Virus genome (UHGV): UHGV-0219829
From: a virus
Strand: one strand, 5' to 3'
DNA length: 26,053 nucleotides
The notes under the pieces were generated by a model that was not told the DNA's origin, made no database searches, and worked only from the letters and a program-made list of their open reading frames with translations. A program made the position numbers and the translations under genes. Shown one piece after another: positions 1 through 16,159 of this stretch. Position 1 is the first letter of the stretch. Every line of letters starts with the position of its first letter.

Positions 1-40
1 TAAACCCTGTTTTCCTTGCCATAGACACCATCCCTGTCTT

Positions 41-67
41 CCCCCACATGATGTGGGGGTTTTTTTT
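41..67 (+). terminator. Rho-independent terminator-like hairpin (CCCCCACAT/ATGTGGGGG stem followed by a T8 run), probably ending a host transcript at the prophage boundary
   Basis: Seen directly: perfect 9-nt inverted repeat at 41-59 followed by TTTTTTTT at 60-67. Plus-strand orientation is inferred from the T-run position. Confidence 0.6.
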
Positions 68-152
68 ATCAATTACTTACATGCAATCAAAAGTAAAAAC
101 AAGTACTTATCGAAAGCTGTAAGGGTTTGGAGCGGTTTCAAAATTTCTTGAG

Positions 153-173
153 TGTGGACACTATGTGGACACT
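153..173. repeat. Tandem direct repeat TGTGGACACT-a-TGTGGACACT next to the int 3' end; candidate integrase arm-type binding sites of attL
   Basis: Seen directly: 10-bp unit at 153-162 and 164-173. It lies 14 bp from the int stop. The match to P2-type arm sites (TGTGGACA-like) is from memory and not verified. Confidence 0.5.
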
Positions 174-186
174 CAGAGGGGGAAAT

Positions 187-1197
187 TTATAACGTCACTC
201 CGCCTTTTAGTGGATTCAGAGCGACGGCATTTTGCAGATAGTCAGGCGCAAGGTGCGCATAGGCCATCGTCTGCTGAATGCTCGCATGTCCCAGAATCTG
301 TTGCAGTGCGATTATATTGCCCCCATTCATCATGAAATGGCTTGCGAATGTATGCCGCAGGATGTGGGTTGCCTGATTGGGTGGTATATCAGGTTTCACT
401 CTGCGTAAAATCCCGCAAAATTTCTCATAATCAACTTTGAATAATTTGGCGCTGGCCTCCTCTTTAACTTTTTTCTCCAGTTCCTCAGAAATCGGCACGG
501 TTCGCTTTTTACCGTTTTTGGTTTTCAGGAAGGTAACCCTGCAATTTGTAATCTGTGCTGGTTTTAGCGTGGCAACTTCCGTCCATCTTCCTCCAGTGCT
601 CAGACATAAAAGCGCGACAAGTAAGTCATCACCAGCCAAAACATTTAACAGTTTTTCGATTTCTGCTTTTTCCAGGAACGTCATTTCAGGGTTGGCCTCC
701 GCCAGTGGCGGCAGTCCGTGAATTGGGTGTTGCCCGGAAAATTCATCCAATTGAATTAATTTTGTGAACATGCCGGATAATCGGTACATGTCACGGTTTA
801 TCGTTGCGGCACTGATACCATCACGTAGTCGCATGGAACGATAATCCATCAAAGCCCTTTTGCTCATCCTGCTCACTGGTATATCACCTATGCCGCTGAT
901 GGTTTTGAGTAGATGATTAAACTCTTTTGTTCCATGCTCGTGGTTTTGCCCGTGATATTTCCACCAGATGTCCAGCAACTCACTCAAAGTCCGGCGGTCT
1001 GCTCGCTGGCCTCCCCATTCTTTCTGACTGGCATTGGCGATTGTGTATCGCTCAAATGCTAGTGCTTCAGCTTTTCTTTCGAATTTCCTGCGGATGCGTT
1101 TTCCGTCGCGACCGCGAGGTCTAATGTCCACTTCATAGCGACCATCATCGAGCTTCTTAATTGCCATAAGAAAGCCCTCCGGCGCTGTATTCACCAT
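187..1197 (-). CDS. int: Tyrosine site-specific integrase (P2 Int-like)
   Basis: 336-aa ORF at the prophage edge, adjacent to and co-oriented with the repressor. C-terminal region contains HxLRHT, matching the conserved tyrosine-recombinase box (ATHILRHTFASHFMMNGGNIIALQQILGHASIQQTMAYAHL). An alternative ATG at 1167 (MAIKKL...) has a GGAGG Shine-Dalgarno, so the true start may be 1167. Confidence 0.9.
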   Translation of the reverse strand: MVNTAPEGFLMAIKKLDDGRYEVDIRPRGRDGKRIRRKFERKAEALAFERYTIANASQKEWGGQRADRRTLSELLDIWWKYHGQNHEHGTKEFNHLLKTISGIGDIPVSRMSKRALMDYRSMRLRDGISAATINRDMYRLSGMFTKLIQLDEFSGQHPIHGLPPLAEANPEMTFLEKAEIEKLLNVLAGDDLLVALLCLSTGGRWTEVATLKPAQITNCRVTFLKTKNGKKRTVPISEELEKKVKEEASAKLFKVDYEKFCGILRRVKPDIPPNQATHILRHTFASHFMMNGGNIIALQQILGHASIQQTMAYAHLAPDYLQNAVALNPLKGGVTL

Positions 1198-1236
1198 CTT
1201 GGTAGCAAATGGTGAAAATGTAATCTTTATATAGAG

Positions 1237-1530
1237 TTAGCCAATCCTTTTCGCGGAGTGGTTGGACTCTGTTGACTCTGGCCCAATGTGCGCGAGAGCC
1301 GGTGCGATTTGTCCTGCGTCCGGCGCGGTTTTATCTGTCATAAGCCATAGAGCATATTTTTGGAATGTGGGATGCATAGTGATTTTTAGCAAAGCTGTGC
1401 CACCGGGTTCAAAGTTTCCTCCTTCATATTTTTTAAGTGTGCTTAGCGGTAACTCTATGATTTCACAGAATTTTGATTGGCTTAGCCCTTCAGCCTCACG
1501 CAAGGCCTTAATCTTTTCGCTTAATTTCAT
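1237..1530 (-). CDS. C: Immunity repressor (P2 C-like, HTH)
   Basis: 97-aa ORF with ATG start, divergent from the early operon. The N-terminus looks like a helix-turn-helix and the C-terminal part (GQIAPALAH...) resembles P2 C as I recall it. Position is between int and cox. Confidence 0.85.
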   Translation of the reverse strand: MKLSEKIKALREAEGLSQSKFCEIIELPLSTLKKYEGGNFEPGGTALLKITMHPTFQKYALWLMTDKTAPDAGQIAPALAHIGPESTESNHSAKRIG

Positions 1531-1651
1531 TTGACATGGTGCCTATATAGGGACTAAATTCCCTCAAAACTGGAACCTATATAGGTTCCATTGATTTGAG
1601 AATAAACCAGCGTCTAAACGGTTTTGAGTGGTTTAGAAAGGGCTGGATCCT
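1531..1651. promoter_or_regulatory. Lysis/lysogeny switch region with face-to-face early (Pe) and repressor (Pc) promoters; contains two identical palindromic 10-bp elements CCTATATAGG (1542-1551 and 1576-1585) and a TTGACA box (1531-1536)
   Basis: Seen directly: two perfect copies of the self-complementary CCTATATAGG, 34 bp apart, between divergent C and cox. The operator role is inferred from position. Confidence 0.6.
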
Positions 1652-1666
1652 ATGAGGGTACCATAT

Positions 1667-1939
1667 ATGGACGCTGAAAATTATGTGATTCAGTATCCGC
1701 TTGATGCGGTTCATGTGGATAAATTTGCTGATTTATTAGGGAAGCCAAAGACAGCCGTCAGTGAAATGGTGAAGGCAAATAAATTACCAATTATTGAATT
1801 GCGTGATCCTTGCAAACCGAAGGCTCGTGCCGGTGAAAAATGGGTTTTCATTCCTGAGTTTAATCGCGCTGTACGTGAGGCGTTTTATAACCGACCGGTT
1901 GAACAGCGTGATGCATGGCTTTTGTGGATGGGGTTGTGA
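1667..1939 (+). CDS. cox: Cox-like excisionase/transcriptional regulator
   Basis: First gene of the rightward early operon opposite C. GAGGG Shine-Dalgarno lies 7 nt upstream of the ATG at 1667; the longest ORF starts at ATG 1652. Size is about 90 aa, as for P2 Cox. Confidence 0.7.
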   Translation: MDAENYVIQYPLDAVHVDKFADLLGKPKTAVSEMVKANKLPIIELRDPCKPKARAGEKWVFIPEFNRAVREAFYNRPVEQRDAWLLWMGL

Positions 1940-1941
1940 TT

Positions 1942-2112
1942 ATGAATGAGCCGCGTTGTATTGCTCAGTTATTACGTAACGAAAGCCCCAGGGCGATTGA
2001 CTTCACCATCACCCACGGGAAGGGTCGCAAAGGAATCATTATCCGCACTAAAAAACAGAGTCCGTTAAAGAAGGCTCTGACCTTTCTGAAAAGCCGGAGG
2101 GTCTGGAAATGA
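1942..2112 (+). CDS. Small basic hypothetical protein (early operon, between cox and B)
   Basis: ORF in the early operon with an ATG at 1942 just after the cox stop; lysine/arginine rich. No recognisable motif. Confidence 0.45.
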   Translation: MNEPRCIAQLLRNESPRAIDFTITHGKGRKGIIIRTKKQSPLKKALTFLKSRRVWK

Positions 2113-2609
2113 CAGTGATGACGCTCAATCTCGTTGAAAAACAGCCAGCAGCTATGCGCCGGATAATTGGCAAGCATCTTGCCGTCCCTCGCTGGCAGGA
2201 TACATGTGATTATTATAATCAGATGATGGAGCGCGAACGGCTAACGGTTTGCTTCCATGCGCAGTTAAAACAGCGTCACGCAACGATGCGTTTTGAAGAA
2301 ATGAATGATGTCGAACGTGAACGACTGGTATGTGCAATTGATGAATTGCGTGGGGCATTCTCAAAACGCCGTCAGGTTGGCGCAAGTGAGTATGCATATA
2401 TTAGTTTTTTAACAGTCAGTCAGCGTCGTACTTTATTTATGCATGCCGGATTGACTGAAAAAGAATTCAACCAGCCATACTGGCGAATTAATGAAGAATC
2501 ATGTTACTGGCGTGATGCTTTATTCCGTGCATTACGTGAATTATTCAGCCTGTTTGAGTATGCACCGACAATTCTGACGTCGGTAAAACCAGAGCAATAT
2601 CTGCATTAA
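2109..2609 (+). CDS. B: Replication protein B-like (helicase loader-type early protein)
   Basis: 166-aa ORF with GGAGGG Shine-Dalgarno and ATG overlapping the upstream stop. Same size and position as P2 gpB. Confidence 0.75.
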   Translation: MTVMTLNLVEKQPAAMRRIIGKHLAVPRWQDTCDYYNQMMERERLTVCFHAQLKQRHATMRFEEMNDVERERLVCAIDELRGAFSKRRQVGASEYAYISFLTVSQRRTLFMHAGLTEKEFNQPYWRINEESCYWRDALFRALRELFSLFEYAPTILTSVKPEQYLH

Positions 2610-2630
2610 GTAATTAACCAGAGTTTTTAA

Positions 2631-2658
2631 CGCACTTAATCGTGCGGGGCTTCTTTTT
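2631..2658 (+). terminator. Weak hairpin (CGCAC-ttaatc-GTGCG) followed by a T-rich tract; possible attenuator/terminator between B and downstream early ORFs
   Basis: Seen directly: 5-bp stem followed by GGGCTTCTTTTT. The stem is short, so this is weak. Confidence 0.3.
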
Positions 2659-2672
2659 GCCTGGAGAAAGTC

Positions 2673-2897
2673 ATGCATACAGTTTCTGAAAATCAGTGCG
2701 GTATATACGCATTACTGCTGCAACAGGCCAGAACCGAAGCACAGGCCGACGCTGCGACGCGCTTTTCTTCTCATCTTGACGCCATGATTCGCCACATCAC
2801 AAAGGCGGAGTTATCCCGCGTGGAGATAGTCGAGCTGCTCAGTCAGGAGTCGGAAAAATTTCACAATATCGGATTGTCTCGCGGGGAGGTGCTTTGA
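2673..2897 (+). CDS. Hypothetical early protein (P2 orf80-position)
   Basis: 74-aa ORF with ATG and GGAGA Shine-Dalgarno, in the early operon. Confidence 0.6.
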
Positions 2898-3199
2898 TGT
2901 CCTGTTCTCGTTCAGTTGTATTACTGAATAACGCCTTAAAAATCGCCGTTATGAAAAATGGCGATTTATCTCTTATTCAACTTGGTCTTGATAAAGAAAA
3001 ACGCGAAATAACTGAGTCTGTTATCGCGATTTATCAGAACGAATTAAATCTCCTGTCTGATGTGGTCAATTTACTTGTTAAACGCGCTGTATTTCACAAG
3101 CAAATCTCCTCCGTGGATGAACTGACGAAATTAACGACAGAAATTGCCAGCTATTGCGCTGATGAATTTAAAAAACTTAACGACAAAAGGAGCTGGTAA
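2897..3199 (+). CDS. Hypothetical early protein (P2 orf81-position)
   Basis: ATG at 2897 overlaps the upstream TGA (ATGA); the track start at 2894 is a TTG. About 100 aa. Confidence 0.6.
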   Translation: MSCSRSVVLLNNALKIAVMKNGDLSLIQLGLDKEKREITESVIAIYQNELNLLSDVVNLLVKRAVFHKQISSVDELTKLTTEIASYCADEFKKLNDKRSW

Positions 3200-3423
3200 T
3201 GCCGGACAACGTAGATTTTATTCAGGAACAACAGGCTGAATTACTGGAGCGCCAGATTAACTCGGCAAGGGTAAAGCATTGCGGTGTTTCTGCGCTGGTT
3301 TGCGAAGAGTGTGACGCGCCAATACCTGCTGCCCGTCGTGCGGCTTATCCGTCAGCCACGCGTTGTGTTTCCTGCCAGTCAGTCTTTGAAGCAAAAAACA
3401 AACATTACCGGAGAACGGCATGA
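3199..3423 (+). CDS. TraR/DksA-family C4 zinc-finger protein (P2 orf82-position)
   Basis: 74-aa ORF containing CEEC...(17 aa)...CVSC, a four-cysteine CxxC-N17-CxxC arrangement. ATG overlaps the upstream stop. Confidence 0.7.
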   Translation: MPDNVDFIQEQQAELLERQINSARVKHCGVSALVCEECDAPIPAARRAAYPSATRCVSCQSVFEAKNKHYRRTA

Positions 3424-3695
3424 GTATTCGTATTGAAATTGGCGAACGTTATGTCGTTACCAGTGACAGCTTTCAGTTTATTCTCCACGAGAAAAAGAGA
3501 GCTGAAAGCGGTAAAAACGCCGGTCAGGAATGGCTGGCGGTGGTTGGTTATTACCCGAAATTAAGCCAGCTTGTTTCCGGCCTGATGCATCACGATATTC
3601 TGACCGGAAGCGCAAAGTCTTTTGCTGATTTAAACGCGCAGGTTGAGCAACTCAGCAAGCGTTGTTCAGAGGCTTTTGGCTCATATGGCCGTTAA
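3420..3695 (+). CDS. Hypothetical early protein (P2 orf83-position)
   Basis: 91-aa ORF with ATG overlapping the upstream stop, immediately before gene A. Confidence 0.6.
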   Translation: MSIRIEIGERYVVTSDSFQFILHEKKRAESGKNAGQEWLAVVGYYPKLSQLVSGLMHHDILTGSAKSFADLNAQVEQLSKRCSEAFGSYGR

Positions 3696-5961
3696 AGCCT
3701 CCGGGCGTTTTGTCCCTCCGTCAGCATTTGCCGCAGGCACCGGTGAGACGTTTACCGGTGCTTATGCATGGAACGCGCCACGCGAGGCCGTCGGGCGCGA
3801 AAGACCCCTTACACGTGACGAGATGCGTCAGGTGCAAGGTGTTTTATCCACGATTAATCGCCTGCCTTACTTTTTGCGCTCGCTGTTTACTTCACGCTAT
3901 GACTACATCCGGCGCAATAAAAGCCCGGTGCACGGGTTTTATTTCCTCACATCCACTTTTCAGCGCCGTTTATGGCCGCGTATTGAGCGCGTGAATCAGC
4001 GCCATGAAATGAACACCGACGCGTCGTTGCTGTTTCTGGCAGAGCGTGACCATTATGCGCGTCTGCCGGGGATGAATGACAAGGAGCTGAAAAAGTTTGC
4101 CGCCCGTATCTCATCGCAGCTTTTCATGATGTATGAGGAACTCTGCGATGCATGGGTTGATGCACATGGCGAGAAAGAATCGCTGTTTACAGATGAGGCG
4201 CAGGCGCATCTGTATGGTCATGTTGCTGGCGCTGCACGTGCTTTCAATATTTCCCCTCTCTACTGGAAAAAATACCGTAAAGGACAGATGACCACGAGGC
4301 AGGCATATTCTGCCATTGCCCGTCTGTTTAACGATGAGTGGTGGACTCATCAGCTTAAAGGCCAGCGTATGCGCTGGCATGAGGCGTTACTGATTGCTGT
4401 CGGGGAGGTCAATAAAGACCGTTCTCCTTATGCCAGTAAACATGCCATTCGTGATGTGCGTGCACGCCGCCAGGCAAATCTGGAATTTCTTAAATCGTGT
4501 GACCTCGAAAACAGGGAAACCGGCGAGCGCATCGACCTTATCAGTAAGGTGATGGGCAGTATTTCTAATCCTGAAATTCGCCGGATGGAGCTGATGAACA
4601 CCATCGCCGGTATTGAGCGTTACGCCGCCGCAGAGGGTGATGTGGGGATGTTTATCACTCTGACCGCGCCGTCAAAGTATCACCCGACACGTCAGGTCGG
4701 AAAAGGCGAAAGTAAAACCGTCCAGCTAAATCACGGCTGGAATGATGAGGCATTTAATCCAAAGGATGCGCAGCGTTATCTCTGCCGCATCTGGAGCCTG
4801 ATGCGCACGGCATTCAAGGATAATGATTTACAGGTCTACGGTTTGCGAGTCGTCGAGCCACACCACGACGGAACGCCGCACTGGCATATGATGCTTTTTT
4901 GTAATCCACGCCAGCGTAACCAGATTATCGAAATCATGCGTCGCTATGCGCTCAAAGAGGATGGTGACGAAAGAGGAGCCGCGCGAAACCGTTTTCAGGC
5001 AAAACACCTTAACCGGGGCGGTGCTGCGGGATATATCGCGAAATACATCTCAAAAAACATCGATGGCTATGCACTGGATGGTCAGCTCGATAACGATACC
5101 GGCAGGCCGCTGAAAGACACTGCCGCGGCTGTTACCGCATGGGCGTCAACGTGGCGCATTCCGCAATTTAAAACGGTTGGCCTGCCGACAATGGGGGCTT
5201 ACCGTGAACTACGCAAATTGCCTCGCGGCGTCAGCATTGCTGATGAGTTTGACGAACGCGTCGAGGCTGCACGCGCTGCCGCAGACAGTGGTGATTTTGC
5301 GTTGTATATCAGCGCGCAGGGTGGGGCAAATGTTCCGCGCGATTGTCAGACTGTCAGGGTTGCCCGTAGTCCGTCGGATGAAGTTAACGAGTACGAGGAA
5401 GAAGTCGAGAGAGTGGTCGGCATTTACGCGCCGCATCTCGGCGCGCGTCATATTCATATCACCAGAACGACGGACTGGCGCATTGTTCCGAAAGTGCCGG
5501 TCGTTGAGCCTTTGACTTTAAAAAGCGGCATCGCCGCGCCTCGGAGTCCTGTCAATAACTGTGGAAAGCTCACCGGTGGTGATACTTCGTTACCAGCTCC
5601 CACACCTTCTGAGCACGCCGCAGCAGTGCTTAATCTGGTTGATGACGGTGTCATCGAATGGAATGACCCGGAGGTCGTGAGGGCGCTCAGAGGTGCATTA
5701 AAACATGGCCTGAGAACACCAAATCGCCAGCAAAGAAACGGAAGCCCGTTAAAACCGCATGAAATGGCACCATCGGCCAGACTGACCCGGTCGGAACGAA
5801 TGCAAATTACCCGTATCCGCGTTGACCTTGCTCAGAACGGTATCAGGCCGCAGCGATGGGAGCTTGAGGCGCTGGCGCGTGGGGCAACCGTAAATTATGA
5901 CGGGAAAAAATTCACGTATCCGGTCGCTAATGAGTGGTCGGTTTTTTCAATTAAACAATAA
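3685..5961 (+). CDS. A: Rolling-circle replication initiator protein A (HUH endonuclease)
   Basis: About 758 aa from ATG 3685 (the track start at 3643 is TTG). Contains an HUH motif (TPHWHMMLF) and a downstream paired-tyrosine motif (GYIAKYISK), both seen directly. Position and size match P2 gpA. Confidence 0.9.
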   Translation: MAVKASGRFVPPSAFAAGTGETFTGAYAWNAPREAVGRERPLTRDEMRQVQGVLSTINRLPYFLRSLFTSRYDYIRRNKSPVHGFYFLTSTFQRRLWPRIERVNQRHEMNTDASLLFLAERDHYARLPGMNDKELKKFAARISSQLFMMYEELCDAWVDAHGEKESLFTDEAQAHLYGHVAGAARAFNISPLYWKKYRKGQMTTRQAYSAIARLFNDEWWTHQLKGQRMRWHEALLIAVGEVNKDRSPYASKHAIRDVRARRQANLEFLKSCDLENRETGERIDLISKVMGSISNPEIRRMELMNTIAGIERYAAAEGDVGMFITLTAPSKYHPTRQVGKGESKTVQLNHGWNDEAFNPKDAQRYLCRIWSLMRTAFKDNDLQVYGLRVVEPHHDGTPHWHMMLFCNPRQRNQIIEIMRRYALKEDGDERGAARNRFQAKHLNRGGAAGYIAKYISKNIDGYALDGQLDNDTGRPLKDTAAAVTAWASTWRIPQFKTVGLPTMGAYRELRKLPRGVSIADEFDERVEAARAAADSGDFALYISAQGGANVPRDCQTVRVARSPSDEVNEYEEEVERVVGIYAPHLGARHIHITRTTDWRIVPKVPVVEPLTLKSGIAAPRSPVNNCGKLTGGDTSLPAPTPSEHAAAVLNLVDDGVIEWNDPEVVRALRGALKHGLRTPNRQQRNGSPLKPHEMAPSARLTRSERMQITRIRVDLAQNGIRPQRWELEALARGATVNYDGKKFTYPVANEWSVFSIKQ

Positions 5962-6132
5962 TGACTACTACTGCAGTGTTGTGGGAATGTTATAGTGTTT
6001 GTGGGATTTTTCTATGAAAAACAATGAATTAATCTGTTTTTCATATTGAGCTAATTTTTTATGGCCACAGTTGTTAAAAAGTGAGAACATAATCTTGTTC
6101 AAAACCTGCTTCTATATACGGAGGCTTTCGCT

Positions 6133-6159
6133 ATAATACGCGGTCGGTTTTAGGAGGGG
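6133..6159 (+). promoter_or_regulatory. Putative promoter -10 (TATAAT at 6133-6138) and strong Shine-Dalgarno (AGGAGGGG at 6152-6159) for the methyltransferase gene
   Basis: Seen directly in the AT-rich spacer after gene A. The -35 element is weak, so promoter strength is uncertain. Confidence 0.45.
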
Positions 6160-6162
6160 ATA

Positions 6163-7107
6163 ATGCCAACAGTAGTTTCACTTTTTTCTGGATGCGGTGG
6201 TTCCGATGCGGGGGTTTTGAGAGCCGGCTTTGATGTGCTTATGGCCAACGATATCTTGCCGTATGCGCGCGATGTTTATATTGCCAATCATCCAGAAACT
6301 GATTACATATTAGGCAATATTGCTGATGTAACTACTTTTCCTAAATCTGATTTGCTGGTAGGTTGTTATCCATGTCAGGGATTCAGCCAGGGTGGTGCGC
6401 GTAAAGCCGATCGAAAAATTAATACTCTTTATTTAGAGTTTGCTAGAGCTTTAAACAATATAAAGCCTAAAGCTTTTATAGTAGAAAACGTGTCTGGTAT
6501 GGTTAGAAAAAATTTTGAGCATTTGTTATCTGACCAGATCAGGGTTTTTACTGAAGCAGGTTATACTGTTTCCGCAAAAGTTTTAAATGCGGCTGAATAT
6601 GGAGTAGCGCAGGAAAGAAAAAGAATATTTATCGTAGGAATCCGTAATGATTTCAAAGTTAAGTACGAGTTCCCTCAGCCAACTCATGGGCCAGCAACTG
6701 GCGTCAACTATGTTACTATTAAAGATGCTATAGGGCATTTACCTGAATGGCCAGAAGGTGAATTTTATGATATGGGATTCCATTGGTATTATATGTCTCG
6801 CAATCGTCGCCAGGATTGGGATCAAATTTCAAAGACAATAGTTGCTAATGCAAGGCATATGCCGTTGCATCCTGTCAGTCCTCCGATGGAGAAAGTAAGA
6901 ACTGATGAATGGAGATTTGTTGAGGATCGGAGAGCTCGCAGATTCAGTTTTCGAGAGGCAGCACTATTACAAGGGTTTGAGGATCTAGTGTTTCCAGAAA
7001 CAAATGCTGCAAGTCTTGGCATGAAATACACGGTGGTTGGTAATGCAGTGCCTCCGCCGCTTTTTGAAGCTGTAACGAAGGCATTGCCAATAGAATTATG
7101 GGATTGA
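6163..7107 (+). CDS. DNA (cytosine-5)-methyltransferase (Dcm-type C5-MTase)
   Basis: 314-aa ORF carrying the full canonical C5-MTase motif set: motif I FSGCGG, motif IV PCQGFS (catalytic Cys), motif VI ENV, motif VIII QERKR, motif IX REAALLQGF, motif X GNAVPPPL. Confidence 0.9.
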   Translation: MPTVVSLFSGCGGSDAGVLRAGFDVLMANDILPYARDVYIANHPETDYILGNIADVTTFPKSDLLVGCYPCQGFSQGGARKADRKINTLYLEFARALNNIKPKAFIVENVSGMVRKNFEHLLSDQIRVFTEAGYTVSAKVLNAAEYGVAQERKRIFIVGIRNDFKVKYEFPQPTHGPATGVNYVTIKDAIGHLPEWPEGEFYDMGFHWYYMSRNRRQDWDQISKTIVANARHMPLHPVSPPMEKVRTDEWRFVEDRRARRFSFREAALLQGFEDLVFPETNAASLGMKYTVVGNAVPPPLFEAVTKALPIELWD

Positions 7108-7114
7108 TAAGCTA

Positions 7115-8104
7115 TTAAGGCTCTGGATTTAATGTATAAAGCTCTTCCTCAAATTCGCGAAACCAATCAGAGGTAGTTATCGCTTCCCATTGGTTTGCCT
7201 TATCAAGTAGATATATGATTCTCAACCTATCTAATAATAATACCCCAGCGGTTGCGTGTGTGCTTACCCATTCGCCATTTGCTTCCCGATAGAAAACAGG
7301 CGTGAACATTGTTGATGGATGCTGGAACGCAATTTGGAAATAGGTGGTCAGTTTTAACACGTTAGCCTCTAATGTTTTGCTTGGCCACCCTGTTTCTTGT
7401 GCGCCACATTGACCAAGAATTCCATAGTTGCTAGTTTGACCATCAGGAAATTCCACTGTAGCAATTAGGTCAAACCCGGCATCACCAGATGTGGGAGCTC
7501 TATTTATTTCCCTTGTGTTTAAACTACAAACTCCAAGATCTTTTCCTAAAGTTTGTAGAGCTGTCCGAAGATTTGTTCCATAATAATTTTGCCTATCATC
7601 GGAGTTAGCATCAAAAATTCTTACGGTGCCATGTGCAGGTAAGAGAGAAATCATTGCTACTTTACATACTCTGGCAAAGCTCTTTGCCCAACGTTGTGCT
7701 GCTCCTTTAATCGACTTAAAGGATCTAAGTCTAGAGCAGCAAAGAAGAAAAACATATATTCGTTGTTGTTGGTTTAGATTTTCTTTAATAATTATCTCAT
7801 CACCTGAAATTATAAATGGATATATTTTGCCAAGAGCACTTTCTCTATATTCGAGTTGTGTCCAAACATCTTCGAGTTGCTCTTCAAAACGATCATTTCT
7901 CTCAGCGTCTCCATTAATTTCTTCTTCAGAATTACATTCTTCATCAATTTCTTCAACGCTTGTTATGCCGAATTTTCTTACTGAATCTAAATCATTTTTA
8001 TGTAGTGAGTTACGTCCGGTATAATTAATTACCGTGAGTAACTCGGCTAAATCTGCAAACAAATGAGGAGAGTTGGGATGCATAACTCCTACTTCAAAAG
8101 TCAT
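7115..8104 (-). CDS. Hypothetical protein, partner of the ParB-like protein; function unknown (candidate defence effector)
   Basis: About 329-aa ORF. ATG starts at 8107/8104 lie just downstream of a GAGG, and the gene overlaps the upstream gene's stop, suggesting translational coupling. Its stop is 7 nt from the convergent MTase stop. Low GC. I recognised no confident motif. Confidence 0.65.
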   Translation of the reverse strand: MTFEVGVMHPNSPHLFADLAELLTVINYTGRNSLHKNDLDSVRKFGITSVEEIDEECNSEEEINGDAERNDRFEEQLEDVWTQLEYRESALGKIYPFIISGDEIIIKENLNQQQRIYVFLLCCSRLRSFKSIKGAAQRWAKSFARVCKVAMISLLPAHGTVRIFDANSDDRQNYYGTNLRTALQTLGKDLGVCSLNTREINRAPTSGDAGFDLIATVEFPDGQTSNYGILGQCGAQETGWPSKTLEANVLKLTTYFQIAFQHPSTMFTPVFYREANGEWVSTHATAGVLLLDRLRIIYLLDKANQWEAITTSDWFREFEEELYTLNPEP

Positions 8105-9215
8105 CATCACCTCTGCTATTTTTCTCTGCTATTTCAGAACCTATAAGCTTAATATGTTTATTGATTCTTCGTGCTACTTCATGGGCCTGTCTATCATACT
8201 CTACCGTGGCAACCATGCCTGCTGCATCTATCAAAGCTGCTTCAACTTGATAAAGTAACTGGAGAAAGTCCTTAGTAATATCAGATGTCAATTGATAGGC
8301 AACTGCGAGTGGAGCCCCCATTCGGAATTGCTCCAATGCCTTAGGGCTACTTACAACAGCAGCTAGTTCTCTTAAATTACGTGATTCTCCTACACGAGTT
8401 TTTTTATCCTCGCCTTTTTTATATAACCATTCAGTTAGTTCTTTTATTTCTTTGTTCTTTAAACTCTTAGAATTGATGATAGGATGACTTGGTATTGTGT
8501 CTCCATCGTCTTCGATTGAAACTCCGACAAACTGGCCTAACCGCTCATCAGCAAGTGCTGTTGATAATACTGAAAATTTAATCGTTTCTTCATCTAGCTT
8601 TTCAATACCATAAAAATCATTTTTTTTAATGATTTCATACACCGCTAAAGCGTCTAGGTTACGCTTGATATGATCCCTACGACTGCCAATAGCTCTGGCA
8701 ACCTCATAGTAGCGTAGCATTGGATCCAGATTTGCATTGGTATAATCAAAAAGCTGTTTAATATATCGAGCTTTTGATAAGGGTTCCCATTGTTTGACAC
8801 CAGTAATATGTCTGAAACCAAGGTACGGAAGAATCTCTTCTCTTGTTTGGCGCTCAATGACAGGAACACGATCGACCGTATGTTTTGCATTTGATGCAAT
8901 TTCTCGTAGTCGAGCACTTGGATTTTCACATAGTGTCGGATCGCGTAATAATTTGACCGCGGATAGGCGACGGTTTCCTTCAACTACAATGTACTTCCCC
9001 GGCGCTCCACTATCAGGAATGACAATCAATGGTTCTCCAGGGAAAAAACCATTTTCCGCAATAGCACTCATTAGGTCTTCGATAGATGTTGAGGTTGCTA
9101 TGTAGTTAATCATTCCCAATTGGTCACGAGACACGCCTTCAGGAAGTCTTGGGTTTTCTGTGTCAAGTTCCAAATCATCTAGCGGAACATAAAGTATTTC
9201 TGAATCAGCAATCAT
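8094..9215 (-). CDS. ParB/Srx-like N-terminal domain protein (ParB-like nuclease/NTP-binding fold) with probable HTH; candidate defence component
   Basis: About 373 aa from ATG 9215, which has a GGAG Shine-Dalgarno 6 nt upstream (the track start 9254 is TTG). ParB box-like motifs are seen directly: LDDLELDTENPR and IVVEGNRRLSAVK (GxRR arginine finger-like). Confidence 0.7.
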   Translation of the reverse strand: MIADSEILYVPLDDLELDTENPRLPEGVSRDQLGMINYIATSTSIEDLMSAIAENGFFPGEPLIVIPDSGAPGKYIVVEGNRRLSAVKLLRDPTLCENPSARLREIASNAKHTVDRVPVIERQTREEILPYLGFRHITGVKQWEPLSKARYIKQLFDYTNANLDPMLRYYEVARAIGSRRDHIKRNLDALAVYEIIKKNDFYGIEKLDEETIKFSVLSTALADERLGQFVGVSIEDDGDTIPSHPIINSKSLKNKEIKELTEWLYKKGEDKKTRVGESRNLRELAAVVSSPKALEQFRMGAPLAVAYQLTSDITKDFLQLLYQVEAALIDAAGMVATVEYDRQAHEVARRINKHIKLIGSEIAEKNSRGDDDF

Positions 9216-9441
9216 CTGGATCTCCGTTGAACATGTCCACGAGAAGGAGCACAAAGTTATTTCATAACATGCAATATACTCATTCTGTAGCCATAAATGA
9301 ATTATTCATGATGTAAGATTCGCGTTGATGTGCGTGAATTCGCAAGTAATTATACAGCAAGGTTTGATTGGGTATCGTCAGCACCAGTGCGGTTCCAACG
9401 TACTCATGCAACTGCATTAAAACCGCCCCATGAAGCGGGCG

Positions 9442-9460
9442 GGCGAGGCGGGGAAAGCAC
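9442..9460. other. cos: cos cohesive-end site (GGCGAGGCGGGGAAAGCAC) for terminase cleavage/packaging
   Basis: The 19-mer matches the P2 cohesive end as I recall it (from memory, not verified). It lies in the non-coding region just upstream of portal gene Q, where cos sits in P2. Confidence 0.6.
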
Positions 9461-9602
9461 TGCGCGCTGGCGGTGGTGCTGATTTTATTTTTTCAGCGTC
9501 TCAGCGCGTCGTAATGGCGTTTAGATTGTGCGCCGGGGCGTTGGTGTGTCTGCGGGCTGTTTTGTGCGGTGGTGAGTGTGTGAGGGCGTGATGACGGGGT
9601 GT

Positions 9603-9628
9603 AAAAAAGCCGCCCGCAGGCGGCGATG
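9603..9628 (-). terminator. Rho-independent terminator of the leftward P-Q late operon
   Basis: On the minus strand, 5 nt after the Q stop: GCCGCC-tgcg-GGCGGC hairpin followed by TTTTTT. Confidence 0.7.
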
Positions 9629-9629
9629 T

Positions 9630-10664
9630 TCAGCCGTTGTCAGTGTCCAGTGAGTAGTTTTTAAAGCGGATGACCTCCTGGCCGAGCCAGCCGTTTATCT
9701 CGCGGATCCTGTCCTGTAACGGGATAAGCTCATTGCGGACAAAGACCTTTGCCACTTTCTCAATATCACCCAGCGACCCGACGTTCTCCGGCTTGCCGCC
9801 CATCAACTGAAAAGGGATGCGGTGCGCGTCCAGCAGGTCTGCGGCGCTGGCTTTTTTGATATTAAAAAAATCGTCCTTCGTTGCCACTTCACTGAGCGGG
9901 ATAATTTTAATGCCGTCGGCTTTCCCCTGTGGGGCATAGAGAAACAGATTTTTAAAGTTGTTGCGGCCTTTCGACTTAACCATGTTTTCGCGAAGCATTT
10001 CGATATCGTTGCGATCCTGCACGGCATCAGTGACGTACATGATGTATCCGGCATGTGCTCCATTTTCGTAATACTTGCGGCGGAACAGCGTGGCCGACTC
10101 ATTCAGCCAGGCAGAGTTAAGGGCGCTGAGATATTCCGGCAGGCCGTACAGCTCCTGATTAATATCCGGCTCCAGCAGGTGAAACACGGAGCCGGGCGCG
10201 AAGGCTGTCGGCTCGTTGAAGGACGGCACCCACCAGTAAACATCCTCTTCCACACCACGGCGGGTATATTTTGCCGGTGAGGTTTCCAGTCTGATGACCT
10301 TACCGGTAGTGCTGTAACGCTTTTCCAGAAACGCATTACCGAACACCAGAAAATCCAGCACAAAGCGGCTGAAATCCTGCTGGGAAAGCCACGGATGCGG
10401 GATAAATGTCGAGGCCAGAATATTACGTTTGACGTAAATCGGTGAGCTGTGATGCACGGCAGCACGCAGGCTTTTTGCCAGACCGGTAAAGCTGACCGGT
10501 GGCTCATACCATCTGCCGTTACTGATGCACTCGACGTAATCCAGAATGTCACGGCGGTCGAGTACCGGCACCGGCTCGCCAAAGGTGAATGCTTCCATTT
10601 TCGGGGCGCTGGCGGTCATTTTTTTTGCCGCAGGTTGCGGTGTTTTCCCTTTTTTCTTGCTCAT
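9630..10664 (-). CDS. Q: Portal protein (gpQ)
   Basis: 344-aa ORF, the same size as P2 gpQ. Its ATG overlaps the P stop (ATGA). Lysine-rich N-terminus. Confidence 0.9.
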   Translation of the reverse strand: MSKKKGKTPQPAAKKMTASAPKMEAFTFGEPVPVLDRRDILDYVECISNGRWYEPPVSFTGLAKSLRAAVHHSSPIYVKRNILASTFIPHPWLSQQDFSRFVLDFLVFGNAFLEKRYSTTGKVIRLETSPAKYTRRGVEEDVYWWVPSFNEPTAFAPGSVFHLLEPDINQELYGLPEYLSALNSAWLNESATLFRRKYYENGAHAGYIMYVTDAVQDRNDIEMLRENMVKSKGRNNFKNLFLYAPQGKADGIKIIPLSEVATKDDFFNIKKASAADLLDAHRIPFQLMGGKPENVGSLGDIEKVAKVFVRNELIPLQDRIREINGWLGQEVIRFKNYSLDTDNG

Positions 10665-12436
10665 CAGTAAAACTCCAGAATGGTGGATGTCAGCGGGGTG
10701 CTGATACCGGCGGTGAGTGGCTCATTTAACAGGGCGTGCATGGTTGCCCAGGCGAGGTCGGCGTGGCTGGCTTCCTCGCTGCGGCTGGCCTCATAGGTGG
10801 CGCTGCGTCCGCTGCTGGTCATGGTCTTGCGGATAGCCATAAACGAGCTGGTGATGTCGGTGGCGCTGACGTCATATTCCAGACAGCCACGGCGGATAAC
10901 GTCTTTTGCCTTGAGCACCATTGCGGTTTTCATTTCCGGCGTGTAGCGGATATCGCGCGCGGCGGGATAGAACGAGCGCACGAGCTGGAACACGCCGACA
11001 CCGAGGCCGGTGGCATCAATCCCGATGTATTCAACGTTATATTTTTCGGTGAGTTTGCGGATGGATTCCGCCTGGGTGGCAAAGTCCATGCCTTTCCACT
11101 GGTGACGCTCAAGTATTCTGAATTTGCCACCGGCCACCACCGGCGGTGCCAGTACCACGCATCCGGCGCTGTCGCCACGGTGTGACGGGTCGTAACCAAT
11201 CCATACCGGGCGGGAGCCGAACGGATTGGCGGCAAAGGGTGCATAGTCTTCCCATTCTTCCAGCGTGTCGACCATGCAGCGTTGCAGCTCCTCGAACGGG
11301 AACACCGACGCCTTGTCGTCAACAAATTCACACATGAACAGGTTTTTAAAATCGTCGGCGCTGTTTTCGCGTTTGAGCTGCTCAATGTCGAACAGCGTGC
11401 AGCCACCTTTCAGGGCGTCCTCAATGGTGACAATCTGTCGCCACTGGCCGTCCGCACAGAGAAGCCCACCGGCAAGGGCGTTATGACTGACGTCGATTTC
11501 CACGCGTTCGGCGGCGCTGGCGCGTCCCCGGTTAAACAGTTCACCCGACCAGAACGGGTAGGCGTCGTGCGCCAGCGTGGACGGGGTGGAGAAATAGGTC
11601 GAGCGCAGGTGGCTCTGTGAGGCCATACCTGATGCCACCTTACGCAGTACCTGAAAATTCGGGATCCAGAAAATCTCGTCGACGTACAGGTCGCCGTTAT
11701 GGCTCTGTGCGGTGTTGGAGTTGGTGCCGAGAAAAATCAGTTTTGCGCCGTTATTGCCCAGGACAATCGGGTCACCGGTCAGGTCAACGTCAACCAGCCG
11801 GGCAAAGGCGATGATGTATTCGCGGAACACATACGCCTGCGTTTTACTGGCCGACAGAAAAATCTGGTTATGACCGGTTTTCAGGGCACGCAGCAGCGCC
11901 TCGCGGGAAAAATAAAACGTCGCGCCAATCTGGCGGGATTTCAGGATATCGCGGATGCGGTGCTCAAGCCCGGCGCGATACCAGTGCAACTGATAGTCGA
12001 AAGACTGCTCAAAGAAAATCTGCTCCAGCTTTTCGATGGCCTCGTCACTGAAAAAATTCTTTTTCGGTTTGCGACGCCCGCCTTTGTTGCGGTTAGCGAC
12101 GTTCGGATTAAGGTCTGCCTCGTTGCCGGTCTGACTGTAGCGGTTTACCCGTGCCAGTCGTTCAATCTGGCGTCCGAGCAGGTCAATTTCCTTGAAGTCA
12201 CCACCGGTTTTCTGCGGTTTGATGATGAGCTGGGTCAGCCGCGCTTCCAGACTCATTTCGACACGGCTGATGGGGGCAACGCTGTCCCAGCCGTCGCGCT
12301 GTTTCCAGCTCTGCACCGTCGGGCGTTTCATCTGCAACATGGCGGCAATCTGCGGCACGGAAAACCCCTGCCAGTACAGCAGCGCCGCCTGACGACGCGG
12401 GTCGTGTAAAAGAGTGGTGTCTGTGGTGATGGTCAT
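10664..12436 (-). CDS. P: Terminase large subunit (gpP)
   Basis: 590 aa from ATG 12436, which has a GAGG Shine-Dalgarno (the track start 12466 is TTG). Size equals P2 gpP; located upstream of the portal. Confidence 0.9.
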   Translation of the reverse strand: MTITTDTTLLHDPRRQAALLYWQGFSVPQIAAMLQMKRPTVQSWKQRDGWDSVAPISRVEMSLEARLTQLIIKPQKTGGDFKEIDLLGRQIERLARVNRYSQTGNEADLNPNVANRNKGGRRKPKKNFFSDEAIEKLEQIFFEQSFDYQLHWYRAGLEHRIRDILKSRQIGATFYFSREALLRALKTGHNQIFLSASKTQAYVFREYIIAFARLVDVDLTGDPIVLGNNGAKLIFLGTNSNTAQSHNGDLYVDEIFWIPNFQVLRKVASGMASQSHLRSTYFSTPSTLAHDAYPFWSGELFNRGRASAAERVEIDVSHNALAGGLLCADGQWRQIVTIEDALKGGCTLFDIEQLKRENSADDFKNLFMCEFVDDKASVFPFEELQRCMVDTLEEWEDYAPFAANPFGSRPVWIGYDPSHRGDSAGCVVLAPPVVAGGKFRILERHQWKGMDFATQAESIRKLTEKYNVEYIGIDATGLGVGVFQLVRSFYPAARDIRYTPEMKTAMVLKAKDVIRRGCLEYDVSATDITSSFMAIRKTMTSSGRSATYEASRSEEASHADLAWATMHALLNEPLTAGISTPLTSTILEFY

Positions 12437-12609
12437 GAATACCTCGCCGTGATGAATACACGGCAAGGCTACTGAGTCGCGCCCCGCGATTCGCTAAGGT
12501 GCTGTTGTGTCAGTGATAAGCCATCCGGGACTGATGGCGGAGGATGCGCATCGTCGGGAAACTGATGCCGACATGTGACTCCTCTAATCACTATTCAGGA
12601 CTCCTGACA
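12437..12609. promoter_or_regulatory. Divergent late promoter region (by analogy with P2 PP leftward and PO rightward, activator-dependent)
   Basis: Non-coding region between divergent P and O. I could not locate a perfect TGT-N12-ACA element, so exact promoter elements are unassigned. Confidence 0.4.
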
Positions 12610-13464
12610 ATGGCAAAAAAAGTCTCAAAATTCTTTCGTATCGGCGTTGAGGGTGACACCTGTGACGGGCGTGTCATCAGTGCGCAGGATATTCAGGAAA
12701 TGGCCGAAACCTTTGACCCGCGTGTCTATGGTTGCCGTATTAACCTGGAACATCTGCGCGGCATCCTGCCTGACGGTATTTTTAAACGTTATGGTGATGT
12801 GGCCGAACTGAAGGCCGAAAAGATTGACGATGATTCGGCGCTGAAAGGCAAATGGGCGCTGTTTGCGAAAATCACCCCGACCGATGACCTTATCGCGATG
12901 AACAAGGCCGCGCAGAAGGTCTACACCTCAATGGAAATTCAGCCGAACTTTGCCAACACCGGCAAATGTTATCTGGTGGGGCTGGCCGTCACCGATGACC
13001 CGGCAAGCCTCGGCACGGAATACCTGGAATTCTGCCGCACGGCAAAACACAACCCTCTGAACCGCTTCAAATTAAGCCCTGAAAACCTGATTTCAGTGGC
13101 AACGCCTGTTGAGCTGGAATTTGAAGACCTGCCTGAAACCGTGTTCACAGCCCTGACCGAAAAGGTGAAGTCCATTTTTGGCCGCAAACAGGCCAGCGAT
13201 GATGCCCGTCTGAATGACGTGCATGAAGCGGTGACCGCTGTTGCTGAACATGTGCAGGAAAAACTGAGCGCCACTGAGCAGCGCCTCGCTGAGATGGAAA
13301 CCGCCTTTTCCGCACTTAAGCAGGAGGTGACTGACAGGGCGGATGAAACCAGCCAGGCATTCACCCGCCTGAAAAACAGTCTCGACCACACCGAAAGTCT
13401 GACCCAGCAGCGCCGCAGCAAGGCCACCGGTGGTGGCGGTGACGCCCTGATGACGAACTGCTGA
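12610..13464 (+). CDS. O: Capsid scaffolding protein (gpO)
   Basis: 284 aa from ATG 12610 (MAKKVSKFF...). The track start at 12544 adds 22 residues with no Shine-Dalgarno. Size equals P2 gpO. Confidence 0.9.
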   Translation: MAKKVSKFFRIGVEGDTCDGRVISAQDIQEMAETFDPRVYGCRINLEHLRGILPDGIFKRYGDVAELKAEKIDDDSALKGKWALFAKITPTDDLIAMNKAAQKVYTSMEIQPNFANTGKCYLVGLAVTDDPASLGTEYLEFCRTAKHNPLNRFKLSPENLISVATPVELEFEDLPETVFTALTEKVKSIFGRKQASDDARLNDVHEAVTAVAEHVQEKLSATEQRLAEMETAFSALKQEVTDRADETSQAFTRLKNSLDHTESLTQQRRSKATGGGGDALMTNC

Positions 13465-13523
13465 CCGGCGTCAGTCAGTCCGGGAAAAACCTTCACGATT
13501 AACCCTTAATTTCAGGAAAAACT

Positions 13524-14597
13524 ATGCGCCAGGAAACCCGCTTTAAATTTAATGCCTACCTGTCCCGTGTTGCCGAACTGAACGGCATCGACGCCGGTGA
13601 TGTGTCGAAAAAATTCACCGTTGAACCGTCGGTCACCCAGACCCTGATGAACACCATGCAGGAGTCCTCTGACTTTCTGACCCGCATCAACATTGTGCCG
13701 GTCAGCGAAATGAAAGGGGAAAAAATTGGTATTGGTGTCACCGGCTCCATCGCCAGCACCACCGACACCGCCGGTGGCACCGAGCGTCAGCCGAAGGACT
13801 TCTCGAAGCTGGCGTCAAACAAGTACGAATGCGACCAGATTAACTTCGATTTTTATATCCGCTACAAAACGCTGGACCTGTGGGCGCGTTATCAGGATTT
13901 CCAGCTTCGTGTCCGTAACGCCATTATCAAACGCCAGTCCCTTGATTTAATCATGGCCGGTTTTAACGGCGTGAAGCGTGCCGAAACCTCTGACCGCAGC
14001 AGCAATCCGATGCTACAGGATGTGGCGGTCGGCTGGCTGCAGAAATACCGCAATGAAGCCCCGGCGCGCGTGATGAGCAAGGTCACTGACGAGGAAGGCC
14101 GCACCACCTCTGAGGTTATCCGCGTGGGTAAGGGCGGTGATTATGCCAGCCTTGATGCACTGGTGATGGATGCGACCAACAACCTGATTGAGCCGTGGTA
14201 TCAGGAAGACCCTGACCTTGTGGTGATTGTGGGACGTCAGCTACTGGCGGACAAGTATTTTCCCATCGTCAACAGGGAGCAGGACAACAGCGAAATGCTG
14301 GCCGCTGACGTCATCATCAGCCAGAAACGCATCGGTAACCTGCCGGCGGTACGCGTCCCGTACTTCCCGGCGGATGCGATGCTCATCACAAAGCTGGAAA
14401 ACCTGTCCATCTACTACATGGATGACAGCCATCGCCGCGTGATTGAGGAAAACCCGAAACTCGACCGCGTGGAGAACTACGAGTCAATGAACATTGATTA
14501 CGTGGTGGAAGACTACGCCGCCGGTTGTCTGGTGGAAAAAATTAAGGTCGGTGATTTCTCCACACTGGCTAAAGCGACCGCAGAGCCGGGAGCGTAA
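13524..14597 (+). CDS. N: Major capsid protein (gpN)
   Basis: 357-aa ORF, equal to P2 gpN; follows the scaffold gene. Confidence 0.9.
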   Translation: MRQETRFKFNAYLSRVAELNGIDAGDVSKKFTVEPSVTQTLMNTMQESSDFLTRINIVPVSEMKGEKIGIGVTGSIASTTDTAGGTERQPKDFSKLASNKYECDQINFDFYIRYKTLDLWARYQDFQLRVRNAIIKRQSLDLIMAGFNGVKRAETSDRSSNPMLQDVAVGWLQKYRNEAPARVMSKVTDEEGRTTSEVIRVGKGGDYASLDALVMDATNNLIEPWYQEDPDLVVIVGRQLLADKYFPIVNREQDNSEMLAADVIISQKRIGNLPAVRVPYFPADAMLITKLENLSIYYMDDSHRRVIEENPKLDRVENYESMNIDYVVEDYAAGCLVEKIKVGDFSTLAKATAEPGA

Positions 14598-14600
14598 CCG

Positions 14601-15344
14601 ATGACGAGTCCCGCACAGCGCCACATGATGCGGGTCTCGGCAGCGATGACCGCGCAGCGGGAAGCCGCCCCGCTGCGACATGCAACTGTCTATGAGCAGA
14701 TGCTGGTTAAGCTCGCCGCAGACCAGCGCACACTGAAAGCGATTTATTCAAAAGAGCTGAAGGCCGCGAAAAAACGCGAACTGCTGCCGTTCTGGTTGCC
14801 GTGGGTGAACGGCGTGCTGGAGCAGGGCAAAGGTGCACAGGATGACATTCTGATGACGGTCATGCTGTGGCGTCTGGATACCGGCGATATTGCCGGTGCG
14901 CTGGAGATTGCCCGTTATGCCCTGAAGTACGGTCTGACCATGCCGGGTAAACACCGCCGCACCCCGCCGTACATGTTCACCGAGGAGGTGGCGCTTGCGG
15001 CCATGCGCGCTCACGCTGCCGGTGAGTCTGTGGATCCCCGCCTGCTGACGGACACCCTTGCACTGACCGCCACGGCAGACATGCCTGATGAAGTGCGCGC
15101 AAAGCTGCACAAAATCACCGGTCTGTTTCTGCGTGACGCTGGTGATGCCGCCGGTGCGCTGGCTCACCTGCAACGCGCAACACAGCTCGACTGTCAGGCA
15201 GGCGTCAAAAAAGAGATTGAACGACTGGAGCGGGAGCTGAAACCGAAGCCGGAGCCGCAGCCCAAAGCGGCCACCCGCACTCCGCGTAAGACCCGGAGCG
15301 TGACACCGGCAAAACGTGGACGCCCGAAAAAGAAAGCCAGTTAA
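14601..15344 (+). CDS. M: Terminase small subunit (gpM)
   Basis: 247-aa ORF, equal to P2 gpM; basic KRGRPKKK C-terminal tail. Confidence 0.85.
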   Translation: MTSPAQRHMMRVSAAMTAQREAAPLRHATVYEQMLVKLAADQRTLKAIYSKELKAAKKRELLPFWLPWVNGVLEQGKGAQDDILMTVMLWRLDTGDIAGALEIARYALKYGLTMPGKHRRTPPYMFTEEVALAAMRAHAAGESVDPRLLTDTLALTATADMPDEVRAKLHKITGLFLRDAGDAAGALAHLQRATQLDCQAGVKKEIERLERELKPKPEPQPKAATRTPRKTRSVTPAKRGRPKKKAS

Positions 15345-15443
15345 CAACCGAATGCGCCCCGCGCCAGGGCGGCACGCCGGTCAGTGACGGTGAATCACCT
15401 GACACTGCACCGGCGTCCACCGCCCGACTTTTCAGAGGTAGTC

Positions 15444-15953
15444 ATGATGACGCTGATTATTCCGCGAAAGGAGGCTCCCGTGTCCGGTGAGGGTACGGTG
15501 GTTATCCCGCAACCGGCAGGCGACGAGCCGGTGATTAAAAACACGTTCTTTTTTCCCGATATTGACCCGAAGCGCGTCCGGGAACGTATGCGCCTTGAGC
15601 AGACCGTCGCCCCCGCCCGTCTGCGTGAGGCCATCAAGTCAGGCATGGCGGAGACGAATGCGGAGCTGTACGAGTACCGCGAACAGAAAATTGCCGCCGG
15701 TTTTACGCGTCTGGCGGACGTCCCGGCGGACGACATCGACGGTGAAAGCATCAGGGTTTTTTACTACGAGCGCGCCGTGTGTGCGATGGCGACCGCGTCG
15801 CTTTATGAGCGTTATCGCGGCGTGGATGCCAGTGCGAAAGGCGACAAGAAGGCCGACAGCATTGACAGCACCATTGATGAGCTGTGGCGGGATATGCGCT
15901 GGGCAGTGGCGCGTATCCAGGACAAGCCGCGCTGCATCGTGAGTCAAATCTGA
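15444..15953 (+). CDS. L: Head completion/stabilisation protein (gpL)
   Basis: 169 aa from ATG 15444 with a GAGGT Shine-Dalgarno (the track start 15384 is GTG). Size equals P2 gpL. Confidence 0.85.
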   Translation: MMTLIIPRKEAPVSGEGTVVIPQPAGDEPVIKNTFFFPDIDPKRVRERMRLEQTVAPARLREAIKSGMAETNAELYEYREQKIAAGFTRLADVPADDIDGESIRVFYYERAVCAMATASLYERYRGVDASAKGDKKADSIDSTIDELWRDMRWAVARIQDKPRCIVSQI

Positions 15954-16156
15954 TGAAGACCTTTGCGCTACAGGGCGACACGCTCGACGCCATTTGTGTC
16001 CGGTATTACGGGCGCACTGAGGGCGTGGTCGAGGCCGTGCTCGCCGCAAATCCGGGACTGGCTGAACTGGGGGCGGTGCTGCCACACGGCACCGCCGTCG
16101 AACTGCCCGACGTTCAGACCGCGCCCGTGGCTGAAACTGTCAATCTGTGGGAGTAA
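15953..16156 (+). CDS. X: Tail protein X (LysM-like small protein)
   Basis: 67 aa from ATG 15953, overlapping the L stop (TGATG). Size equals P2 gpX. Confidence 0.8.
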   Translation: MKTFALQGDTLDAICVRYYGRTEGVVEAVLAANPGLAELGAVLPHGTAVELPDVQTAPVAETVNLWE

Positions 16157-16159
16157 CGC

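Follow-up and report, generated by a model that had tools for sequence, protein, structure and literature searches.

Does the small DNA methyltransferase encoded among the cargo of a P2-like prophage act on its own, or does it belong with the two genes beside it? The question is posed by UHGV-0219829, a viral sequence of 26,053 nucleotides (nt) that we refer to as the window, in which an open reading frame (ORF) at positions 6163-7107 of the plus strand has two overlapping minus-strand genes as its only cargo neighbours. The first-pass annotation of this sequence had considered both an orphan anti-restriction enzyme and the modification subunit of a restriction-modification (R-M)-like system. 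Based on the comparison of related loci in other genomes, we conclude with high confidence that the methyltransferase belongs, as an integral component, to a module of three genes. By itself it is an ordinary enzyme; its interest lies in its context, a widespread trio of a ParB-fold protein, a nuclease-like protein and a C5-cytosine methyltransferase.

Identification of the methyltransferase

The ORF starts with ATG, ends with TGA and encodes a protein of 314 amino acids (aa). Residues 3-308 match PF00145 (E = 5.5e-65; 220 bits for a cutoff of 22; model positions 2-322 of 324), and the protein likewise matches TIGR00675 (dcm; E = 1.4e-56). Motifs I, IV, VI, VIII, IX and X follow each other in canonical order, with the target recognition domain (TRD) between motifs VIII and IX:

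Residues 7-13: motif I, LFSGCGG
Residues 67-75: motif IV, GCYPCQGFS, with the catalytic Cys71
Residues 108-110: motif VI, ENV
Residues 150-154: motif VIII, QERKR
Roughly residues 165-255: TRD, HaeIII-like
Residues 259-272: motif IX, RRFSFREAALLQGF
Residues 293-300: motif X, GNAVPPPL

Judged by these matches, which lie far beyond chance, the product is a C5-cytosine DNA methyltransferase, and the earlier description of a compact canonical enzyme of 314 aa with all motifs in place is borne out. RefSeq names the same ORF 'DNA cytosine methyltransferase' (WP_001143636), and the identical protein is recorded on at least 1000 contigs.

The methyltransferase is linked to two minus-strand genes in unrelated elements

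The two genes that accompany the methyltransferase are as follows:

7115-8104, minus strand: 329-aa protein, the proposed effector, with an N-terminal winged helix and a C-terminal domain of probable PD-(D/E)xK fold; hypothetical protein in RefSeq
8094-9215, minus strand: 373-aa ParB/Srx-fold protein with an N domain, a helix-turn-helix (HTH)-like middle part and a helical C-terminus; 'ParB N-terminal domain-containing protein' in RefSeq

The ParB-like gene overlaps the downstream 329-aa gene by 11 nt, and the latter converges with the methyltransferase gene, the two stop codons being 7 nt apart. Related loci were gathered via homologues of the 329-aa protein. In every genome locus where the contig permits, the ParB-like and nuclease genes were adjacent, with the ParB-like gene first. 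A homologous C5 methyltransferase (60-77% identical) adjoined the pair in 12 genome loci, usually in convergent orientation and in two loci upstream on the same strand. Among viral contigs, methyltransferase and nuclease genes were present together in 26 of 26, and the ParB-like gene was found in all but one incomplete contig. The trio occurs in an integrative element of Pseudomonas nitroreducens, in the chromosome of Methylomonas koyamae, in coliphage Wphi (orf98/orf96/mth), in phage 12474III and, at a different genomic position and with a ParB-like protein of 35% identity, in Pseudomonas phage D14A (L071). Klebsiella P2-like prophages (L028-L031) carry a methyltransferase of 75% identity next to paralogous partners that are only 33% and 27% identical, and the two close methyltransferase homologues whose contexts were looked up (P0331 and P0243) are each located beside a ParB-nuclease pair. 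The hotspot of Yersinia phage L-413C (L037, 207-1199) contains a truncated ParB-like ORF only (62% identical, 79% coverage), apparently the remnant of a decayed cassette.

The linkage extends to distant relatives. When 1.8 billion representatives were searched with a profile, at least 1168 relatives of the nuclease family (clusters at 50% identity) were found. The best 150 of these 1168 matches, all 116-365 aa and mostly 310-350 aa long, included no ParB-nuclease fusion. In the distant relatives that were looked up (profile E-values of 1e-34 to 1e-43), the nuclease gene was always located 3' of a ParB_N gene, and a C5 methyltransferase gene followed on the same strand in all four contigs reaching past the nuclease gene; in one of these loci (L069) there is a 4-nt overlap at each of the two gene junctions. 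These distant methyltransferases are 42-46% identical to that of the window and share its TRD core, FH(W/G)xY(M/L)(S/T)RNR...W and H(M/V)PLHP. Across 40 distinct loci, whose data points are not phylogenetically independent, the divergence of the methyltransferase correlated with that of each partner (Spearman 0.72 to 0.76), and the divergence of the two partners with one another (0.94).

The partner proteins have a ParB-like fold and a probable nuclease fold

The predicted structure of the 373-aa protein is confident (pLDDT 87.7) and resembles KorB and Spo0J. Its N domain has the ParB/Srx fold and contains the GxRR arginine motif of box II, for which the equivalent segment, E79-G-N-R-R-L84 (EGNRRL), is invariant among 27 homologues. 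With TIGR00180 the protein scores 33 bits, under the cutoff of 58.45. In PADLOC it matches 25 PD-Lambda-5_A models (best E = 6.6e-29), the match being confined to the N-terminal two thirds (profile positions 7-277 of 440), and is over this part homologous to the A protein of the anti-phage system PD-lambda-5. A further PADLOC match (E = 1.3e-20) covers positions 59-341 of the 715 in the profile of PDC-M38A, an uncharacterised candidate defence system of several genes, about twice the length. The nucleotide preference of ParB-type proteins is not predictable from sequence (PMC12704722).

Neither the 329-aa protein nor ten distant relatives matched any Pfam, NCBIfam or PADLOC family, and PHROGs returned 'unknown function' only. 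The best fold matches of the nuclease domain include MspJI and AspBHI; Foldseek ranked NgoMIV and MspJI at the top, with E-values (0.17 to 0.2) that are not significant. The conserved residues are G207-D-x-G-x-D212, D221, Q232-C-G, W240, K243 and E246, and they are kept in a paralogous clade of only 26% identity. The 329-aa protein is therefore a probable nuclease of PD-(D/E)xK fold, an assignment to which these comparisons lend moderate support. Pfam and fold searches detected no SRA-like or other modified-base-binding domain.

The cassette occupies a defence hotspot of a P2-like prophage

By its gene content (integrase, gpA, portal Q and terminase) the window is a P2-like prophage:

187-1197, minus strand: integrase
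3643-5961: replication protein gpA (PF05840, E = 3e-124; 772 aa, the largest ORF of the window)
9442-9460, minus strand: right edge of the hotspot, a cos of P2 type whose 19-nt cohesive end is GTGCTTTCCCCGCCTCGCC
9630-10664, minus strand: portal Q
10664-12466, minus strand: terminase, named so in the RefSeq record

Since gpA lies on one side and cos and Q on the other, the methyltransferase is located in the gpA|cos-Q hotspot (hotspot 1), where P2 itself carries tin and old. The GC content of the cargo stretch (5962-9440) is 39.8%, compared to 53.9% elsewhere in the window. The hotspot has been documented to harbour defence cargo (Rousset 2022; Vassallo 2022, PMC9519451), and the P2 hotspot table of Rousset 2022 has at least 98 entries of the kind 'DNA_methylase + hypothetical + ParBc'; the cassette is absent from the table of cloned systems in the same study. 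Table S5A of Rousset 2022 also lists another ParB-superfamily protein with a C5 methyltransferase and a separate effector. Of 5426 complete E. coli genomes, 48 contained the whole cassette (99.7-99.8% identity), as did Yersinia phage HQ103 (99.9% identity). The cohesive end of the window is the same as that published for HQ103 (PMC10321612), and the HQ103 record terminates at the cos position. The carrier state reported for this phage (H21/H22) in Y. pestis depends on temperature.

Several candidate expression signals were found in the cargo stretch and at its left edge:

5920-5941, plus strand: terminator-like hairpin and T-run after gpA, found by a scan; the left edge of the cargo cassette
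6013-6045, between gpA and the methyltransferase gene: perfect 11-nt inverted repeat, TATGAAAAACA-N11-TGTTTTTCATA
6132-6137, plus strand: TATAAT hexamer, possible -10 of the methyltransferase gene, read from the sequence, with no matching -35
6152-6157, plus strand: Shine-Dalgarno sequence AGGAGG, 5 nt 5' of the methyltransferase ATG, read from the sequence
9349-9354, minus strand: TATAAT hexamer, a candidate -10 only, about 135 nt 5' of the ParB-like gene; no call by the scan

The terminator-like hairpin after gpA implies that the methyltransferase gene plausibly needs a promoter of its own. A strong Shine-Dalgarno sequence and an own -10 element had been proposed earlier, and both AGGAGG and TATAAT are indeed present. 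A sigma-70 scan called no full promoter upstream of the gene, as there is no usable -35, and the TATAAT is accordingly a hexamer match rather than evidence of a promoter. The inverted repeat was rejected as a conserved operator: it is confined to near-identical cassettes, and divergent ones have no repeat in common.

The predicted target contains GGCC

M.HaeIII (GGCC) was the only methyltransferase of solved structure whose alignment spanned the entire protein with its TRD (E = 1.4e-48); the others aligned to the catalytic domain only. Five M.HaeIII residues have been reported to contact the target bases (PMC11879396). Three of these, S224, R225 and R243, are kept as S212, R213 and R231 in the methyltransferase of the window, and the other two, S219 and Q244, are both replaced by His. 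Because of the full-length alignment and the conserved base contacts, the predicted site likely contains GGCC. For a C5 methyltransferase of Methylomonas, the REBASE prediction of GGCC proved experimentally to be TGGCCA (PMC7720504), so likeness to M.HaeIII does not fix the exact site. We treat the enzyme of this Methylomonas strain, DH-1, as a lead only with regard to membership in the present family: M. koyamae has the trio, but the DH-1 sequence is not identical.

Relation to known systems

The closest known relative of the cassette is PD-lambda-5, which was selected experimentally from ECOR7, has validated anti-phage activity and is tabulated as 'ParB/HEPN, methyltransferase' (PMC9519451). 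It was cloned in an mrr-deleted host and read by its authors as a compacted R-M plus abortive infection (Abi) system (PMC9519451). PD-lambda-5 and the cassette are both prophage-borne, with homologous ParB/Srx N-domain proteins and an adjacent DNA methyltransferase. They differ in the class of methyltransferase: HHpred assigned the B protein of PD-lambda-5 to PF02086, D12-class N6-adenine (Dam-like) enzymes, whereas that of the window is a C5-cytosine enzyme, and among the best 25 of its 63 PADLOC matches there was no PD-Lambda-5_B model. They differ as well in the effector: the C-terminal part of the A protein (about 430-500 aa in total), for which HHpred gave a weak HEPN/DUF4145 signal, has no counterpart in the window, where a separate winged-helix and PD-(D/E)xK-like protein takes its place. 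Since both methyltransferase class and effector deviate, the cassette falls outside the A plus B definition of PD-lambda-5. By comparison, PADLOC found a complete PD-lambda-5 (A plus B) in Marinobacter phage AS1, and Vibrio peduovirus ValB1MD-2 has a PD-lambda-5 with the A protein split into two genes; unlike the protein of the window, the A proteins of both phages cover the whole PD-Lambda-5_A profile.

With Type II R-M systems of the HaeIII kind the cassette shares a compact C5 methyltransferase gene that converges closely with a gene for a protein of probable nuclease fold. Here, however, the restriction side consists of two proteins, one having a ParB/Srx fold that is not known from Type II enzymes, and no restriction-enzyme family of Pfam was matched by the nuclease-like protein. 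The earlier proposal of a modification subunit of an R-M-like system is hence supported with respect to gene linkage, but the partner is no classical Type II endonuclease. GmrSD, SspE, PD-T4-2 (DUF262 plus HEPN) and DndB are ParB-superfamily nuclease systems that read DNA modification; they are single-chain DUF262 fusions with HNH or HEPN effectors, and GmrSD and SspE act on modified DNA. The cassette is distinguished from this group by a canonical ParB/KorB-type module with an HTH-like domain, by a separate effector and by the methyltransferase within the cassette.

The best PADLOC match of the methyltransferase itself was DruM of Druantia type II (PDLC00027, E = 1.1e-113; 378 bits, compared to 264 bits for generic Type II models), which places it in the DruM subfamily. 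Neither DruE, DruF or DruG nor a large helicase ORF was found in the window, and the locus is therefore not a Druantia type II system. Going by these profile scores, the same methyltransferase subfamily has apparently been recruited by at least two different defence architectures. Our literature search found neither a functional description of this trio nor a mechanistic paper on PD-lambda-5, and a 2026 paper on P2/P4 hotspots did not mention the searched terms.

A model for the cassette and its alternatives

How might the three products act together? We consider it probable, with some reservation, that the cassette is a horizontally acquired R-M-like defence and addiction module, a variant of the PD-lambda-5 type whose modification component is the methyltransferase. 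According to this model, the C5 methyltransferase would mark the DNA of lysogen and phage at a GGCC-containing site. The ParB/Srx-fold protein, with its intact box II and HTH-like domain, would bind or clamp DNA in a nucleotide-dependent manner, and its translationally coupled partner with winged helix and PD-(D/E)xK-like domain would cleave unmarked DNA, methylation blocking cleavage rather than triggering it. The lysogen would thereby be shielded from superinfecting phages, and the cassette would double as an addiction module. A more specific version, which we put forward tentatively, is that the ParB/KorB-fold protein may serve as a nucleotide-gated DNA-binding or sliding subunit that reads GGCC-type methylation and delivers the separate nuclease; the cassette would then represent a separate and widespread NTP-dependent class of R-M outside Types I-IV, with an architecture that is sister to PD-lambda-5.

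Several observations weigh against the defence and addiction model. In at least five chromosomal loci (L006, L011, L014, L018 and L020), and probably in a sixth (L019), the pair occurs with no DNA methyltransferase in the available flanks. These pairs retain the conserved nuclease residues, except for E246A in L011, and are found in Methylococcales and Burkholderiales, flanked by housekeeping genes or, in L006, next to a type I hsdS; the pair is thus not obligatorily dependent on a linked methyltransferase. Moreover, the methyltransferases of Klebsiella and Wphi (L035) are 75-77% identical to that of the window while their partners are only 25-35% identical, a mismatch that fits methyltransferase swapping as well as co-evolution and suggests that either cassettes exchange the methyltransferase or the partners evolve much faster. 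The architecture of a winged helix joined to an MspJI/Mrr-like nuclease also occurs in modification-dependent enzymes. Finally, T-even phages are those against which protection by PD-lambda-5 is best (Vassallo et al. 2022, PMC9519451); classical methylation-blocked restriction usually fails against such phages.

Some of these points bear on a first alternative, in which the pair is modification-dependent or triggered by infection (Type IV-like or Abi-like) and the methyltransferase either marks the trigger or allows the phage to evade restriction. The spacing in MspJI is D-X20-QxK. The effector resembles Mrr and MspJI enzymes, the spacing D212-X19-Q232 being reminiscent of the latter, the ParB-superfamily and nuclease fusions GmrSD and SspE sense modified DNA, the pair occurs without methyltransferase, and PD-lambda-5, which acts on T-even phages, has been called R-M plus Abi. 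However, a co-transcribed methyltransferase would be suicidal if it produced what its own nuclease cleaves, overlapping codons in a three-gene operon normally point to self-marking, and modified-base-binding domains were not detected. We therefore regard this alternative as unlikely.

According to a second alternative, the methyltransferase would be an orphan anti-restriction or epigenetic enzyme directed against host endonucleases of GGCC type, sharing the hotspot with an independent pair by chance. The methyltransferase gene has its own Shine-Dalgarno sequence and -10-like hexamer and is convergent to the pair rather than co-transcribed with it; several genomes have the pair alone, and identities are discordant in Klebsiella and Wphi. 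Against this stand the linkage outside P2 hotspots and over deep divergence, the co-directional operons, one of them with overlapping codons, the complete linkage in the viral contigs, and the ParB-nuclease pairs beside P0331 and P0243. We consider the orphan enzyme improbable and rejected it because the linkage recurs in unrelated elements and distant taxa, in convergent as well as co-directional arrangement; the corresponding proposal of the first-pass annotation gives way to a methyltransferase whose homologues are linked to both minus-strand genes across unrelated mobile elements.

The same parts could also serve primarily in addiction, stabilising the prophage or episome by post-segregational killing, with defence being incidental. 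Compact convergent layouts of methyltransferase and nuclease genes are typical of selfish Type II R-M modules, and the cassette has such a layout and moves between unrelated elements. Furthermore, HQ103, with its near-identical cassette, persists as a non-integrated carrier state (PMC10321612). The HQ103 papers, however, credit H-NS and a truncated repressor for this state and leave the cassette genes unmentioned, an anti-phage phenotype led to the isolation of the related PD-lambda-5, and the hotspot is enriched in defence cargo. Addiction as the primary role hence appears improbable as well. Highly improbable is a role of the ParB-like protein as a partition or segregation factor of an episomal P2-like phage, unrelated to the methyltransferase: some homologues bear the NCBI name 'ParB/RepB/Spo0J partition protein', the protein folds like KorB and Spo0J and HQ103 is kept extrachromosomally (PMC10321612), but there is no ParA partner, the TIGR00180 score is below its cutoff, P2 hotspots have another cassette, StbA/Plasmid_stab_B, as partitioning cargo (Rousset 2022), and the gene shows translational coupling with a nuclease-like gene and linkage to a methyltransferase in chromosomal non-phage contexts.

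Implications of the model

If the defence and addiction model holds, ParB-fold nucleotide switches, associated chiefly with the segregation of chromosomes and plasmids, would also scan DNA for a common form of restriction-like immunity, and PD-lambda-5 would gain a mechanistic frame, namely a ParB module with interchangeable effector and methyltransferase. A function would also be assigned to a large family of 'hypothetical' proteins of about 330 aa and to a recurrent P2-hotspot cargo that is also found in phages of Klebsiella, Salmonella, Yersinia and Pseudomonas. Defence finders would miss the cassette or call it incompletely, and a rule requiring A plus B would skip it. A 5-methylcytosine methyltransferase on a prophage would alter the host methylome and the compatibility with McrBC/Mrr hosts, with consequences for cloning and phage therapy and for how P2-like phages spread.

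Frequency of candidate sites in the window

Site counts in the P2 backbone (1-5961 and 9441-26053) were compared to the expectation of a maximal-order Markov model. GGCC was observed 87 times (about 132 expected) and TGGCCA once (9.7 expected); the cargo cassette showed no skew in GATC, GGCC or TGGCCA. As evidence for the target such depletion is uninterpretable without controls, since E. coli may be poor in these words in general. GATC was strongly depleted in the same backbone, with 10 sites observed and about 92 expected.

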